The notes under the pieces: model-generated | Databases searched by the model: none | The model's input: the letters and a program-made list of their open reading frames with translations, nothing else | Told to the model about the DNA's origin: nothing | Position numbers and translations under genes: made by a program | Origin: Microcoleus sp. | GTDB taxonomy: Bacteria; Cyanobacteriota; Cyanobacteriia; Cyanobacteriales; Microcoleaceae | NCBI GenBank assembly: GCA_042408215.1 | Contig: JAYFMW010000005.1 | Span: 576,001-640,000 of the forward strand | Reading direction: 5' to 3' | Length of the DNA stretch: 64,000 nucleotides | Shown here: positions 6,138 to 20,954 of the stretch, piece after piece | How the letters are laid out: each line of letters starts with the position of its first letter | Numbering within the stretch: the first letter of the stretch is position 1

Positions 6138-6385
6138 GTCAACCACCCACCACTAATCGGAGTACCGATCTAGTGGGGGCTTGAAATTCGCCAAGTTGAC
6201 CAGTCTAAGTGGTTCGCCCACTACGTTTAAGGTAAGCGTTAAAGTACCTACCAGAAAATGCGTGCTAGTTTTCTGCTCTAGAAATTAAAAGTTAAACAGG
6301 TGTAAGGGTTAAGCCAGTGCTTTTAATATAGTTACCGACCTTAAACATTGACGAAGCAAACATTACCCCGTAAGGGAGGACTTAA
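6138..6385 (+). ncRNA. IscB omega-RNA (HEARO-like) scaffold
   Basis: Directly upstream of iscB; motifs TTGACCAG, AAATGCGTGCTAGTTT, TTAAACAG and GAAGCAAACATTACCCC are also present in the 19844 element. Confidence 0.82.
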
Positions 6386-15577: not shown

Positions 15578-17632
15578 TTACCTGCTAGCTTGCTTCTGGG
15601 TTTTGGGTTTGGTAACTTGGTTGTTTTTCGGCTGAGCAATCTCAGCTTTTAACAGTTCGGGGAATGGTGGCTGGAGGTTGTGAACTTCGATATCCATTCC
15701 CACGGGTAGAGGGGGAAGTTGGGGAAGATCGTTTTCTAAATCTTTGAGTCCCTTAACGTCTTTTGCTGCCATGATTTCGGGCAGTTGCGGTATTTTAGCG
15801 GTTTCCAAAGTGCCGAGCATTTTTGCTAGAGCAAATTCTAGCTGAGAGCCTGGGTCGATCGCCACCCAACCCCGGTCAGTCATTTGCCGGATCTCGAAGT
15901 GGAGGTGAGGCCCAGTGGACATTCCCGTATTACCGACGCGGCCGATGGTGTCTCCCTGTTTCACCCATTCTCCGGGTTTGACAAATAGTTCGGAAAGGTG
16001 TCCGTAGAGGGTTTCCTGAGACTGTTTATTATGATTGAGAACTACTGTCAAACCGTAACCGCCTAACCAATCTGCGATCGCCACTTGACCGGCATAAGCA
16101 GCTAGCACAGGCGTCCCCAAGTCGGCTCCTAAGTCAGTGCCGGTGTGAAACCTCCCGTAGCCCATCACTGGATGAGTCCGCCAACCAAAGGGCGAAGTAA
16201 TTGCCGACGCAATGGATAGGGGAAATAGCAGGCTGGTGTTGCCATTGCCGACTCTGCCAGCAGGACGTGGTGTGAGATTGTAGTAAGCAAAACCAGTATT
16301 GCTGCCACTGCTGACACTAATTGGGCCGACACTAATCGGGCCGAGTCCCATGCTGGGCGCGGGTGCTGGGCTGCCGCCCCCATAATATGCAGCGTCGGCA
16401 TAATAACCAGCGTCGGCGGAGTTGCCGGGGTTAGCGAAGTCGGCGGAGTTGGCCTGTTGAAGCTGCTTTCCGTAGACAGATTCTGGTGGCGGGTTTCCAG
16501 GCCCCCAAAGCTGACTGCCTATTTGTTGAACGGCTTCACCGACAGTACCAACAATGTTCCCGGCAGTATTTCCGGCAGTATTTCCGCCACTATTTCCGGC
16601 CGTATTCCAGCCCCTATTTCCGCCACTATTTCCGCCACTATTTCCGCCACTATTTCCGGCAGTATTTCCGGCAGTATTCCAGCCCCTATGCTCGGCACTA
16701 TGCTCGGCACTATTTCCGGCAGTATTCCAGCCCCTATGCTCGGCACTATTCTCGGCAGTATTTCCGGCACTATTCCAGCCCCTATGCTCGGCACTATTCT
16801 CGGCAGTATTTCCGGCAGTATTTCCGGCACTATTCTCGGCACTATTCCCAGGAGGAGGGGTAGCTATGTAGGGCTCGTCTGCGATCGGATTTTGAGGGTC
16901 TCCGTTGCCTCCTTCGGCATCTGCTGTCATCGGCTCTTGGGCATCAGAATACCCGCACAGGTCTCCTACTCCTTGTCCTGATGTCACAGTACCTTGGCAG
17001 CCGGTCGATCGTTCGGCAAACTCTATTGCTGTGGGCGATTCATAGCCGTTGGTAGCCCCTAGGCTGTAGTCTGTGTTGTCGATGTAAGCGTTGGCGGGGT
17101 TAATTGGCGCTTCAAAAGGAGGTTCCTGGGCCGTCGGTTCTGGCAGGGGAATCAGTGCGGGTTCTGGCAAATAATCTGGGGCCGGGGGGTGGTCGGTGGC
17201 CTGGGGTTCTGGAACGTATGCCGGTGCGGGGGCTAGTTCGATATAGGTAGATTGTTCCGGAATTTCGGCTGATGGTTCGACGTAGGGTTCTGGCTCCGCG
17301 ACAGGGGGTGGTGCCTCTTGGAAGGGATCGGGTTCTGGGGCTGGGGGCGGGGCTTCAAATGCTGCCTGGGGTTCTGGTTCGGCGGGGGGCGGGGCTTCAA
17401 ATGCTGCCTGGGGTTCTGGTTCGGCGGGGATGGTTAGTTCTGCTAGGGGTGTTTCGGTTTGTGCCCAAACTAGGCCGTGGCTCAGCAGTCCCAGACTGGT
17501 AAAGCAACTCAGTCCCACCAGCAGAGTGCGATCGGACAAAAGGCGTCCTCTTGTCCGGGCGCTTGTAGGCTGCTTTTTTTGCTCTTTGGTGTTCAAATCG
17601 GCTGTTTTTTGCTTGTCTGTGACTGGTTTCAC
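15578..17632 (-). CDS. M23 family peptidoglycan endopeptidase with long low-complexity/repeat regions
   Basis: ITSPFGWR, HTGTD, YGHL, STGPHLHFE. Confidence 0.9.
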   Translation of the reverse strand: MKPVTDKQKTADLNTKEQKKQPTSARTRGRLLSDRTLLVGLSCFTSLGLLSHGLVWAQTETPLAELTIPAEPEPQAAFEAPPPAEPEPQAAFEAPPPAPEPDPFQEAPPPVAEPEPYVEPSAEIPEQSTYIELAPAPAYVPEPQATDHPPAPDYLPEPALIPLPEPTAQEPPFEAPINPANAYIDNTDYSLGATNGYESPTAIEFAERSTGCQGTVTSGQGVGDLCGYSDAQEPMTADAEGGNGDPQNPIADEPYIATPPPGNSAENSAGNTAGNTAENSAEHRGWNSAGNTAENSAEHRGWNTAGNSAEHSAEHRGWNTAGNTAGNSGGNSGGNSGGNRGWNTAGNSGGNTAGNTAGNIVGTVGEAVQQIGSQLWGPGNPPPESVYGKQLQQANSADFANPGNSADAGYYADAAYYGGGSPAPAPSMGLGPISVGPISVSSGSNTGFAYYNLTPRPAGRVGNGNTSLLFPLSIASAITSPFGWRTHPVMGYGRFHTGTDLGADLGTPVLAAYAGQVAIADWLGGYGLTVVLNHNKQSQETLYGHLSELFVKPGEWVKQGDTIGRVGNTGMSTGPHLHFEIRQMTDRGWVAIDPGSQLEFALAKMLGTLETAKIPQLPEIMAAKDVKGLKDLENDLPQLPPLPVGMDIEVHNLQPPFPELLKAEIAQPKNNQVTKPKTQKQASR
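16555..16850. repeat. In-frame 12-bp/36-bp tandem repeat inside the M23 gene
   Basis: Units such as ggcagtatttcc and ccagcccctatg encode AGNT, AENS, GGNS and HRGWN. Confidence 0.9.
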
Positions 17633-17735: not shown

Positions 17736-17900
17736 TTGACACTCTGGGATCTTTCATAGACTGAGATTCTTGAATGGACTAGAATCTGATCTTCAAAGGC
17801 GCTGTCAAGAGGCCTCTACACGCTCAAAACAACTACCATTACCAGAGGTATTGCAATTGGGCTTACTTTTAATTCAGTTGTGCGGTTAAATTTGGTTGGC
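17736..17900 (-). ncRNA. Orphan TnpB-type omega-RNA / IS605 right-end remnant
   Basis: Reverse strand reads AAAAGTAAGC...TAGTTGTTTTGAGCGT.TAGAGG..TCTTGACAGC...AAGAATC...GAGTGTCAA, homologous to 19662-19816. Confidence 0.7.
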
Positions 17901-17959: not shown

Positions 17960-18847
17960 ATGAGTTTAGCTGACGATCGCTCGACCAATTTTCCGGACTC
18001 TGAATCCGTTGGACTATCAGATGGTGTTACTTGGCAGTGGCAAAGTTGGGAAGGCTTGCCTTATCTGACTTGTAGCTTGCTTTCGATGTGCTCTCATGGC
18101 TTTTTTACTCAGGATTTTTCGCCCCGTGGGCCGATCGACTTGACGGATGTTCTCTCCCCCGGATCGCCGGTTTACCGCCTCCAGCAGGTGCATGGCAATG
18201 CTGTACTCAACACTGGTGTGGTACTGCCTGTTTCTGCTAGTTCTCCAGGCCCGGAAACTGCTGCTGAAAGTTATGCCTCAGCTGATGGCTTGGTGACTCA
18301 GTGTCCGTTTGAGGCGGTGTGGGTTTGTACGGCGGATTGTGTGCCGGTGCTGATTGCTGACGATCGCACTCTCCAAGTCGCCGCAGTTCACGCTGGTTGG
18401 CGCGGGACTGCTGCTAAGATCTTGCCAGAGGCGATCGCTCAACTTGTGGCACAAGGCAGTAAAAGAGAAAATCTGAGGATTGCTATGGGGCCGGCGATCG
18501 CTGGAGAGGTTTACCAGGTATCTGTGGAAGTGGCAGCGGAACTAGGGGCTACTGTTGCTCCTGAAGCTGCTGTTAGTACCGCAGCCGACATTCTGGAGTT
18601 TTTGCACCAACTGCCCGAAACGCCTGTATTTGCCGATCCAGAGCCGGGAAAGGTACGCTTGGACGTTCGTCGCTTGAATGCTCTGCAATTGCAGCAGTTG
18701 GGAATTAGTCTTTCTCAAGTGGCGATCGCTCCTTACTGTACTTATTCTGATTCGGCTCGCTTTTTTTCCTACCGTCGCGATCGACTCAAAAAAGTCCAAT
18801 GGTCAGGAATTGTGAGCGGCGGCGGGACAAGTCCCTCACGGGGGTAG
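17960..18847 (+). CDS. pgeF: Peptidoglycan editing factor PgeF (YfiH)
   Basis: QVHG, ADG, TADCVP, VHAGWRG, FFSYRR. Confidence 0.93.
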   Translation: MSLADDRSTNFPDSESVGLSDGVTWQWQSWEGLPYLTCSLLSMCSHGFFTQDFSPRGPIDLTDVLSPGSPVYRLQQVHGNAVLNTGVVLPVSASSPGPETAAESYASADGLVTQCPFEAVWVCTADCVPVLIADDRTLQVAAVHAGWRGTAAKILPEAIAQLVAQGSKRENLRIAMGPAIAGEVYQVSVEVAAELGATVAPEAAVSTAADILEFLHQLPETPVFADPEPGKVRLDVRRLNALQLQQLGISLSQVAIAPYCTYSDSARFFSYRRDRLKKVQWSGIVSGGGTSPSRG

Positions 18848-19256
18848 AAGGCAAAAGTCAGAAGGCAGAATTTTAGATTACCAAGTTAAAAATCAAAATC
18901 TTTGTATTCATGTTTTTTTCTTGACTTCTACCTTCTGTCTTTTGCCCTCAGATTGGAATTTTCATGAGTATGTGCAAAGGTTTGCTGGTTCCTAGCCCAA
19001 AGCACTAAAAACTAGCAGCTAAACTTTTGGGACAGCGGCGATCGCCCCCGCCCCGCTTTCCTCTGTTGTTAAGATTGCCCTATAACGCCTCGCGCGATCG
19101 CCCGGTCTTTCCTGCAGGGGATGAAACGCAGTTGCAGCCTTTAGGCTGCAACTATTCTGTGTTAAACTTGAATTATGCCGAACAAGTTTATCAACTACGT
19201 GATGAATTATCCTAGTGCGGTGAAATCCCGACCAGTAAGACACTGCCAGCTTTGAC

Positions 19257-19595
19257 CGAGAAAATGGGATGCAAGCCCCGTCCTTTTAGGACGGCTTTAT
19301 GCTATAGTTTAATTGGTTGAAATCCCCACCTAAGATTGCAGCGATATATACTCATCTTGAGTTGAAACCGGGACTGATCCAGTAATAGGGAAAGACTGAA
19401 GGGCAATGGTTAAAATCCAACCTGGAAGCAAAACAAAGTATTGTTAATGTTTTTTAAACAAAACGATACATATAGTCGGGATAGGGCATTGCCACGACTT
19501 AAAATGAACATGGAGGCGCTCGTAAGACTACTTCGGTAGCATTGGTCGATGAAGTGTTAAGAATCCTCTCGCCTTTAGGCAGGGGAGTATGTCAA
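19257..19595 (+). mobile_element. Non-autonomous IS605-group element with TnpB omega-RNA and no ORF
   Basis: Follows TTGAC; left-end hairpin GCAAGCCCCGTCCTTTTAGGACGGC; right end GAATCCTCTCGCCTTTAGGCAGGGGAGTATGTCAA. Confidence 0.82.
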
Positions 19596-19661
19596 TGAGT
19601 AAGACTAGGCACTGGTAAACAAAGGCAGGAGCAGGAGCGTACCTCATTGGCTACTGTTGAT

Positions 19662-19816
19662 GCCAGGGGAACGAAAGCATAAAACAAAAGTAAAAGTAAG
19701 CGCCATCACGGCATCGAAAGATAGTTGTTTTGAGCGTCTAGAGGTGTCTTGATAGCACCATTAAGAGTGTCAAAGCTTCTTAAGAATCCCCGTACCACCC
19801 GGTCGGGGAGTATCAA
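19662..19816 (+). ncRNA. Second orphan TnpB-type omega-RNA (different clade); left boundary uncertain
   Basis: Ends AAGAATCCCCGTACCACCCGGTCGGGGAGTATCAA, is preceded by TTGAT, and has a paralog at 17736-17900. Confidence 0.7.
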
Positions 19817-19843
19817 AATGAGAGTCTCCAGCGGGTTAGTAAA

Positions 19844-20342
19844 GTCAGTAACTCAGGTCTAAATACGCGCTCGCTTGCCAGAGTAATATCAAAACAAGCT
19901 GTACTGACCAGACCCCTCGTAAGAGGAGCCGTTATTTGAGTCAAGACACCTGGAAATGCGACGCTAGTTTCCCGCTCTGTCGCTTGCAATTAAACAGTCT
20001 TAAAGTCACGCTCGGCAGTGTTGCAAGCATAACAAGCTCGGATAACCAGGTCGAAGCGAACATTACCCCTCTCATGGAGGCTCTCGAAGAGCAAATCATT
20101 ATGCGTACAGGATTGCAGAGTTTGAAGTGGTAACTGTCGAGCTTGAAAGTGCATTACAACACTTCGACACTTCGACTACGCGAGCGTGCGACGCTTCGCG
20201 AGGGTGACCGACCGAATCAAGCAATCCCCGTGTAATGGTCACGGCGGTTGAAACCGCCCGTGCGATGCCCTTCCTCGTAGCCGAAGGGTCATTTCCCACG
20301 AGCGGTTTCAACCGCTGAGTTTCCCACTTACGGAGCTTTTTT
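19844..20342 (+). mobile_element. Internally deleted IsrB/IscB-type element: omega-RNA plus terminal hairpins, no nuclease
   Basis: Starts GTCAGTAACTCAGG and shares scaffold motifs with 6138-6385; residual ATGCGT...TGL ORF stub; ends immediately before ATGA. Confidence 0.78.
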
Positions 20343-20954
20343 ATGAGTGAGCCAACTCCCTATCAACTGCTTGAAGTCGATGAAGATGCTTCCTTTGATG
20401 AAGTACAAGAGGCACGTACTCGTCTGACCGAGCAGTACACCGGCGATCGGAAACGTTTAGAATCGATCGAAGCTGCTTATGATGCGATCCTCATGGACCG
20501 CTTGCGACAGCGACAGGAAGGTAAAATTAAAGTCCCCGAACGCATCCGCTTTCCAGAGCGCCTGGCTCCTTCGCCAGCCAGCTTTACTCCGGCTCCTCCA
20601 TCTGGGAGCCCGGCTTGGCTGCAACGGCTCATCGATACTCCGAGTCGATCGGATATTTTGTGGCCTGCTGGCGTGTATGCGAGCTTGGGCGGACTAAGTA
20701 TTTATCCAGCAGCTAATGATTCTCTACTACAGTTGACTCTGGCTCTGGGGGTCGGCTGTTGTCTTTATTTTGTTAATCGCAAGGAACAAAAATTTGGTCG
20801 GGCTGTGCTGCTGACTGTGGCTGGCTTGGTTATTGGCTTGGTGCTGGGAGGCCTTTTGGGTTCTTTGGTTAGTCCGGCATTTATAACAACAGAGAAATTT
20901 ATCGCTTTGTTTACGTTTTTTATTCTGTGGTTGGTAAGCTGTTTTCTGCGATAG
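20343..20954 (+). CDS. CPP1-like (DUF3353) J-like membrane protein
   Basis: PYQLLEVDEDASFDEVQEAR, IEAAYDAILMDRLRQRQEGKIKVPERIRF, C-terminal TM helices. Confidence 0.88.
   Translation: MSEPTPYQLLEVDEDASFDEVQEARTRLTEQYTGDRKRLESIEAAYDAILMDRLRQRQEGKIKVPERIRFPERLAPSPASFTPAPPSGSPAWLQRLIDTPSRSDILWPAGVYASLGGLSIYPAANDSLLQLTLALGVGCCLYFVNRKEQKFGRAVLLTVAGLVIGLVLGGLLGSLVSPAFITTEKFIALFTFFILWLVSCFLR

Follow-up and report, generated by a model that had tools for sequence, protein, structure and literature searches.

Several guide units can be carried by one transcript in omega-RNA and CRISPR arrays, and in IStrons an RNA domain is fused to the omega-RNA. Close counterparts of the locus considered here are found among mobile elements of the IS200/IS605 group. 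TnpA moves such elements as single strands, and TnpB or IscB charged with the element RNA cuts the empty site, upon which repair restores the element (10.1101/2023.03.14.532601; PMC10691335). PATE-like elements bearing omega-RNAs were documented in Geobacillus stearothermophilus (Meers et al., 10.1101/2023.03.14.532601), and the same source states that IscB guides need outside transcription. Standalone omega-RNAs work in trans (PMC10691335). The ISC (IscB) transposons, e.g., ISC1-1_MA of Microcystis aeruginosa, are hallmarked by the N|ATGA target (Kapitonov et al., PMC4810608).

The window, i.e., the whole stretch of DNA analysed here, comprises 64,000 nt of a Microcoleus sp. genome (assembly GCA_042408215.1, contig JAYFMW010000005.1, positions 576,001 to 640,000); its features lie on the + strand unless stated otherwise. 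The locus is situated between a pgeF-like gene (17960–18847; TIGR00726, 178.7 bits), retained as the upstream neighbour in 22/22 genus relatives, and an intact CPP1-like gene encoding 203 aa (20343–20954; PF11833, 244.8 bits), whose orthologues in 22 of 24 genus genomes are 78–94% identical. Three protein-less IS200/IS605 elements, E1, E2 and E3, are present at this locus. They are real, and their arrangement is nested: E1 resides within E2, and E3 lies beside E2, directly 5' of the ATG of the CPP1-like gene. The first-pass annotation had described three elements in a row separated by 66 and 27 nt; of these gaps, the former is the interior of E2 and the latter is the native leader of the CPP1-like gene. 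All three scaffolds do read on the + strand, as annotated. The elements contain short ORFs only, lacking Pfam matches, and possess subterminal hairpins at both ends as judged by profile matches, the right end closing with TCAA (in the IscB type, GTCA on the opposite strand). Probably, three unrelated non-autonomous IS200/IS605 elements inserted here separately at their own four-base targets, each of them likely holding its place via guide RNA lent to TnpB or IscB made elsewhere. Most likely, the locus is an insertion hotspot of selfish elements, probably co-transcribed, and not a selected mixed array.

The host genome (7.36 Mb) is recognisable as cyanobacterial from genes such as those for petL, petM, CemA and a subunit of protochlorophyllide reductase. 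IS200/IS605 elements are abundant in it: 150 scored matches to OrfB_IS605 were obtained out of 253 candidates, together with 31 matches to RRXRR, 20 to the Y1 transposase and 69–70 to HEARO; the profiles built in this analysis recognised 211 TnpB-type right ends and 253 left ends in the whole genome. The stack is not an assembly artefact, since its junctions are spanned by contigs of one DNA run and three RNA runs, and a metagenome contig contains 19252–20056 at 98.8%. The findings named in the first-pass annotation as refuting it did not materialise: covariance-model matches, cognate nucleases and junction-spanning RNA-library contigs are all present.

Other elements occur nearby. The E2 family has one more, partial member of the TnpB type here, the fourth element (17736–17876, - strand). 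It consists of a scaffold and a right end (34.6 bits, model R2) and sits in the divergent region that separates pgeF from an M23 peptidase gene; searches for it revealed neither a 5' domain nor a left end. The M23 peptidase gene (15578–17632, - strand) includes a long internal run of short repeated peptides (NTAGNSAE-like). A second HEARO of the window (6138–6366, 134 bits) is followed by a broken iscB with one stop within the RRXRR match.

E2 (19084–19816), the outer element, is interrupted by E1. Its parts 19077–19243 and 19597–19821 match adjoining parts of a single protein-less uninterrupted copy at C30:560081–559676 (82% and 76%, respectively), hence E1 is nested in E2; the E2 ends match TnpA- and TnpB-bearing elements at C20 and C1. 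The second TnpB-type scaffold of the first-pass annotation is real (56.5 bits, 19648–19816), whereas its element starts at 19084 instead of the annotated 19662 and contains E1. The target motif CTAT (19080–19083) coincides in part with the native -10-like box, namely with its 5' half (TAT^AAT), as seen from empty sites in relatives, and precedes 15 of the 15 left ends found among 30 E2-family loci. An extended -10-like motif, TGTTAAACT (19160–19168), was read from the sequence just 5' of the family RNA start at about 19178. It is followed by the first half of a conserved 5' RNA domain (19178–19256; profile positions 12–74; model R3, 19.3 bits) with helix strands, a kink-turn-like bulge and a GGTGAAATCC hairpin, and, past E1, by the second half (19596–19689; profile positions 94–207; model R3, 15.4 bits). 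Between the halves, helices P1a and P1b are complementary at 5/5 positions each and P2 at 5/7, with 2 mismatches of 7. The TnpB omega-RNA scaffold with the right end occupies 19690–19816 and was recognised by model R2, built from 23 sequences of tnpB-bearing elements only, with the window copies left out. Its single-sequence fold beats shuffles (z = -2.67), and the predicted pseudoknot displays a two-sided compensated change (TTGATA/TATCAA vs. TTGACA/TGTCAA in relatives). In runs X15 and X18, the match of the contigs breaks off at 19073 and resumes at 19101. The unmatched bases, numbering up to 1064, may represent a further insertion near the E2 left end in those strains.

The E2-family RNA is itself the less ordinary part of the locus. 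In the genome, a profile derived from three other copies revealed 22 full-length protein-less members, whose left ends are of at least four kinds. The same profile picked up the two halves of E2, which are in register across E1. The family was detected by DNA search in 45/301 genomes, representing 21 of the 119 genera of the order, and by covariance model in 14/151 genomes of a draw from the phylum. Outside this genome, a -10-like motif directly precedes the conserved start in 22/26 loci (background 4%), the right end is encountered 264–335 nt downstream of this start in 17/26 under a strict pattern, and a same-strand tnpB accompanies none of the 26. The E2-family RNA appears to be promoter-led and about 290 nt long. 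For 15 members, Rfam was searched up to E 2 without any match.

The 5' domain of this RNA, about 170 nt long and not in Rfam, comprises three covarying helices, in which 91.5% of cells pair in 20 members. Two-sided changes are found in 18/31 pairs of the whole RNA, a number reached by 0/500 shuffles, and slid controls pair at 33–46%. A further 28 members, not used for training and including some close kin of those that were, were aligned to the model; here 93.2% pair and 12/17 pairs exhibit two-sided changes. Since single-sequence folding yields the 5' helices in 3/20 members and favours them neither in E2 nor in the other 17, it is covariation alone that they rest on. Between two of the covarying helices, 20/20 aligned members show the pattern of a kink-turn, the 3D fold being predicted; this motif, as defined in PMC5435971, has a helix on either side and consists of a 3-nt bulge and, after it, tandem G.A and A.G pairs. 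E1 landed in a length-variable segment enclosed by the 5'-domain helices.

A covariance model of the 5' domain gave no match in 25 intact tnpB loci, and neither a nucleotide profile nor a covariance model revealed a straightforward derivation of the entire domain from the 3' end of tnpB. The domain and tnpB have only two features in common, namely the GG-N-GARA-N-CC hairpin, which we take to be T-loop-like, and AAAGTA; these coincide with islands of synonymous constraint in 22 E2-type tnpB genes (codons 347–355 and 390–391, respectively). No description of the domain was found in literature listings and abstract openings, which do not suffice to establish its absence from print.

It is possible, albeit somewhat doubtful, that the RNA of E2, about 290 nt long and under its own promoter, is a guide with two domains of a kind not described before and carried by gene-less IS605 elements of many cyanobacteria, in which the TnpB scaffold is fused to a 170-nt domain with its own job, and that one read-through transcript at this locus gives rise to three RNPs, the 27-nt leader guiding both TnpB and IscB. 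The job of the 5' domain might be to stabilise or mature the guide, to help it compete for borrowed TnpB, or to bind a second protein. More widely, the E2 family consists of free-standing guide-RNA genes that were released from coding constraint and kept a structured 5' domain across 21 genera, which points to an RNA element possibly overlooked by TnpB biochemistry and guide engineering.

E1 (19257–19595), delimited by left-end and right-end profiles, is a complete protein-less element located in the variable segment of the E2 RNA. It was correctly annotated as an IS605 mini-element with a TnpB-type end: its 3' part, the TnpB omega-RNA scaffold (19474–19595), scores 111.8 bits with model R1, derived from 25 tnpB-bearing elements only, the window copies being left out. 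The left-end hairpin follows the target motif TGAC (19253–19256, within E2), which precedes 11/11 left ends found among 30 E1-family loci, and the right end closes with TCAA. For the empty-site comparison there is only a diverged uninterrupted E2-type copy, where the site is not TGAC. E1 is 79% identical to the 3' ends of tnpB elements at C3, C6 and C20. In the E1 family, right-end ATGTC/ATTTC covaries with a segment of the GGCAT/GGAAT type (4 and 21 of 25 rows, respectively), and E1 retains the matched GGCAT/ATGTC pair; the single-sequence fold of its scaffold is no better than shuffles (z = 0.57). The predicted guide of E1 corresponds to 19596–19611, i.e., to the E2 interior. The idea that this guide is aimed at sister copies of E2 was ruled out, no site having fewer than 4 mismatches.

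The extended -10-like motif noticed earlier near 19300 was pinpointed as TGCTATAGT at 19300–19308. In the genome, 21 left ends are followed by such a motif, usually 5–8 nt before the scaffold, and it is a promoter motif built into E1-type elements. The 5' extension of the E1 RNA (19309–19473) gave no match in an Rfam search and is weakly common to 3 other mini-elements (C14:9739, C30:248694 and C6:457085; E 0.02–0.06), where it likewise precedes an E1-type scaffold. It is distinct from the E2-family domain, yet also holds a GTTGAAAC motif. The metagenome contig mentioned above (L112) features the same sequence of E1, the right half of E2, the leader and E3 (98.8%). Upstream of the E1 left end (L112:1–70), it bears a different flank, again ending with TTGAC and absent from the host genome, which places a change in another strain exactly at the E1 cut site.

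E3 (19844–20342) is a protein-less IscB-type (HEARO) element, as shown by the family ends and by a match at 19844–20066 scoring 124.2 bits against a gathering score of 83 (RF02033). It comprises a small-repeat insert (about 20155–20205), whose core motif occurs 112 times in the genome, also inside other elements, and a left-end hairpin (about 20285–20342). The roughly 90 bases after the Rfam match (20067–20160) are conserved among orphan HEARO elements and not evident in the aligned stretch of an IscB-bearing copy at C3. The target motif ATGA (20343–20346) is at the same time the start codon of the CPP1-like gene. In this genome, ATGA abuts 39/43 IscB-type left ends, and 23 of the 39 ATGA sites start an ORF of at least 100 codons (background 15%, P = 6e-10). 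Together with CPP1, 25/30 tested ORFs at ATGA sites match Pfam families, hence 26/39 such sites start a Pfam-matched gene; the term "start codon" is absent from the accessible text of PMC4810608. Ten bases 5' of the ATG, E3 ends with GGAG, where most family members have CGAG; it is regarded solely as a candidate replacement ribosome site.

Cognate enzymes for all three elements are encoded in the genome. Elements with TnpB and TnpA and with ends of the E1 and E2 types were found (C20, C3, C1), the TnpBs of both types passing NF040570 and the adjoining genes NF033573. The E2-type TnpBs have a glycine in RuvC-II and an NADxN motif. In this they are like the RIIr-5 clade, described in the accessible part of PMC10691335 as having the RuvC-II glutamate replaced by glycine along with NADxN; the clade is assigned by motif, not by tree, and activity is predicted. 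The end type of E3 is common to two intact 423-aa IscBs with HNH (C3:407314, C8:38316). Among 26 RRXRR loci of the genome, 16 are intact IscB by motif and 22 have the HNH motif; of the four lacking it, two are fragments, and the other two have the length of IscB and escaped the pattern. No IsrB-type protein was found. The earlier label "IsrB/IscB-type" could thus be narrowed: the HEARO scaffold stands, it is of the IscB kind, and E3 as an IsrB element was ruled out, its subfamily pairing with HNH-bearing IscB.

In terms of known classes, all three elements fit non-autonomous IS200/IS605 elements (PATE) by their ends, fixed target, lack of a gene and matching TnpA elsewhere, excision in trans being predicted. 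E1 and E2 fit standalone TnpB omega-RNAs, with a right-end scaffold as in tnpB-bearing elements and the pseudoknot kept; their loading is predicted. E3 fits HEARO/IscB omega-RNA elements by its RF02033 match above the gathering score, the N|ATGA site and the presence of an intact IscB whose ends are of the same type.

The CPP1-like gene has a native leader of 27 nt (19817–19843). The same sequence separates the ATG from the -10-like box in relatives with empty sites, where the locus reads ...CTAT^AA(C/T)GAGAGTC..GCGGGTTA..^ATGAG. E2 split the -10-like box and E3 entered just ahead of the start codon. Together they enclose the entire native leader, whose 27 nt are predicted to provide both the 3' guide of E2 and the 5' guide of E3. 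The insertions took place at a fixed four-base target with no target duplication, empty sites being seen in relatives for E2 and E3. A search for the guides beside target motifs, covering this genome, showed 4, 4 and 3 mismatches per 16 nt at the best other sites; within it, the predicted guides have no target beyond their own empty sites. Close sister copies of E1, E2 and E3 are lacking in the genome (best 79%, 82% and 87%, respectively).

Among the 24 genus genomes searched, the CPP1-like gene was found in 22, and the comparison of empty sites did not recover the stack: E1, E2 and the whole stack occur in 0/22. The ATG site is empty in 15/22 relatives and occupied by an IscB-type left end in 7/22, of at least three different makes. 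In L003, the element at the ATG is a HEARO of 88.7 bits, the 3' half of which resembles that of E3, so the two are possibly of common origin; in L012, it is a HEARO of 145.8 bits with a different left end; five relatives carry a third make, without a HEARO match in the one tested. In L003, the -10-like box that E2 split is occupied as well, by a TnpB-type element in the opposite orientation and two bases away from the E2 site. Although these relatives are kin and not independent, both ends of the leader were struck more than once. The other insertions at the ATG, the reversed element in the box and the absence of E1 and E2 from all relatives uphold the insertion hotspot that the first-pass annotation had mentioned as the simpler alternative. 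In L015 and L017, just a remnant of an IscB-type left end is left before the CPP1-like ATG, and the native promoter region is missing.

At least half of the stretch is held by 19 of the 23 listed sequencing runs, six of the 19 being RNA, and X20–X23 share almost no words with it; four runs were compared over 18000–20950. In the RNA runs, a contig covering 19191–20190 in X7 has a depth of 57 (neighbours: 5 upstream and 6.6–26 on the gene), a contig covering 19759–20191 in X15 a depth of 276 (pgeF 14, gene 35) and a contig covering 19748–19938 in X18 a depth of 54 (gene 11); contigs of the DNA run display depths of 3.3–5.3 throughout. The E2–leader–E3 junction is spanned in three RNA libraries from three studies. 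This is a weak hint at a transcript across the junction, because the contigs show no strand, ends or level, the runs were chosen for having the stretch, and DNA is possible in the libraries. The earlier suggestion that a single transcript with all the scaffolds also serves as the leader of the CPP1-like gene is nonetheless plausible, as contigs from RNA libraries span the junctions. Run X18 also holds an empty leader of a related type. A promoter scan returned no full sigma-70 match on the + strand, as expected for motifs of the extended -10 type.

When 268 element anchors were placed randomly in the non-coding DNA, 0.21 triples within 300 nt were expected vs. one observed (P = 0.19), and 7.6 pairs within 300 nt vs. 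at least 8 observed. Overall, clusters of elements are no commoner than chance; other nestings in the genome are found at C23 and C28. All 11 of 11 neighbouring anchors lie on one strand, and co-direction was rejected as evidence of an array. It is uninformative, since element bodies cannot overlap and the 5' end of a HEARO comes close to a right end solely in co-directional pairs; no array is therefore needed to account for it. Likewise, E3 reads with the gene because an ATGA-targeting element at a start codon always does.

The exception is the tandem of a right end and an orphan HEARO 20–35 nt further on, which occurs in this genome 4 times vs. 0.14 expected (3 without this locus, P = 4e-4). 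Right ends followed by left ends (1 vs. 0.52) and convergent right ends (0 vs. 0.22) show no excess. Right ends are not enriched just before gene starts (9/210 at 15–40 nt) and, given this and the tandem excess, the adjacency of E2 and E3 is not fully explained by the geometry of the leader. Other right-end/orphan-HEARO tandems, 17–35 nt apart, are located at C1:90967 (in the petL leader), C26:114589, C8:83915, L051:1512 and L069; that of L051 consists of an uninterrupted E2-family element and a HEARO. The last two are the only confirmed tandems of up to 40 nt in 78 genus relatives, with looser ones (41–102 nt) in L082 (truncated HEARO) and L091 (right end by eye only); in this check, 30 of 38 pattern matches were inspected, and control matches to the looser pattern were not counted. 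Two large collections yielded 35 pattern loci, nearly all of them chance, one being this same locus and one a truncated case. For this genome the excess is therefore real, but for others it is not established; such stacks may be concealed by the fragmentation of assemblies.

Two further candidates were discarded. A "conserved tandem" in many genus genomes (20/38 matches) falls inside a long coding sequence on the opposite strand. The equal spacing of right-end pairs (217–221 nt) does not reflect a common unit: the segments are unrelated, two are one duplicated nesting, and one is a local duplication. The nesting concerned is a TTAT-target mini-element of another family in two duplicated copies with different nested insertions at the same inner position (C23:21451–21927, C28:257658–258300). 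At C6:578430–578647, the last part of the scaffold of a tnpB element has a second copy 217 nt further downstream, next to a new flank, in the manner of a guide array of two units.

The tandem excess is one of the points that sit uneasily with separate insertion of unrelated elements, and it gives rise to a rather unlikely alternative, in which IscB-type copies just behind a promoter-carrying TnpB-type mini-element are kept more often by piggy-backing on its promoter, so the E2–E3 pair would be favoured and still selfish. The restriction of the excess to this pair type agrees with such an advantage, as do the need of IscB guides for outside transcription, stated in the accessible text of 10.1101/2023.03.14.532601, and, as a weak hint, the depth of the E2–E3 junction contigs exceeding that of the flanking-gene contigs in three studies. 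This idea has to cope with the paucity of tandems in the 78 relatives and among the 35 matches of the large collections, with the host promoter, which already supplies transcription at the start codon, and with the opposite orientation of the L003 pair.

The other counterpoints are the lack of close sisters, the E1 fold at z = 0.57 and the mismatches in P2 of E2, in view of which some of the elements may be decaying. Carried further, these features, together with the interruption of E2 by E1 and the small-repeat insert in E3, would suggest inert relics, i.e., elements piled in a tolerated spot whose RNAs no longer load nucleases. This is unlikely against the high covariance scores, the compensated pair in the E2 pseudoknot, the promoter motifs in place, the intact cognates and the strain with a sequence change exactly at the E1 cut site. 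Very improbable is the selected mixed guide array put forward in the first-pass annotation, in which one transcript would be processed to supply two TnpBs and one IscB with guides, the 27-nt leader acting as a shared double one, kept by the host for defence or control of the CPP1-like gene: for all the co-oriented scaffolds, available cognates, junction-spanning RNA contigs and tandem excess in this genome, nothing points to selection, as the stack is a strain-level feature absent from 22/22 relatives, the scaffolds are unrelated and not repeats, the guides are simply the flanks and find no further target in the genome, E2 is broken up by E1, a linked nuclease gene is lacking, and clustering is at the level of chance.

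Returning to the preferred reading of separately inserted selfish elements, E2 would have inserted before E1, and TnpB or IscB with the element RNA would cut an empty site, upon which repair would copy the element back. A read-through RNA of up to about 1.2 kb could be the guide-RNA precursor and the leader of the gene. The survival of the CPP1-like gene is accounted for by its untouched frame and by the three promoter motifs, those of the host, E2 and E1, that point toward it. Selfish guide-RNA elements have thereby lengthened a 27-nt leader to about 1.26 kb and left the gene untouched, since their targets coincide with the -10-like box and the start codon. For trans loading of two types of TnpB and IscB from a single site, the locus offers a compact test system made by nature.

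Compared with omega-RNA and CRISPR arrays, the stack lacks a repeated scaffold, foreign spacers and a linked effector. Unlike IStrons, the E2 family was seen at intergenic insertion sites, and the core of the IStron group I intron had no match in 15 uninterrupted members of the family (Rfam up to E 2). E3 is like the ISC transposons, as presented in the accessible text of PMC4810608, in its 5' GTCA end, insertion directly before ATGA without duplication and HEARO scaffold (RF02033), and differs from them in having no iscB. With the standalone omega-RNAs in the accessible part of PMC10691335, the elements share mobilised effector-less scaffolds and compatible effectors in the genome, loading being predicted in our case. 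At the same time, the E2-family 5' domain is not part of the scaffold in intact tnpB elements. In the accessible text on PATEs (10.1101/2023.03.14.532601), neither three families nested or adjacent in one leader nor a promoter motif with 165–170 nt of extra 5' RNA, as added in E1 and E2, is described. Otherwise, E1–E3 resemble PATEs in the lack of an ORF, the hairpin ends, the four-base target at the left end, the omega-RNA at the right end and the need for TnpA along with TnpB or IscB in trans.
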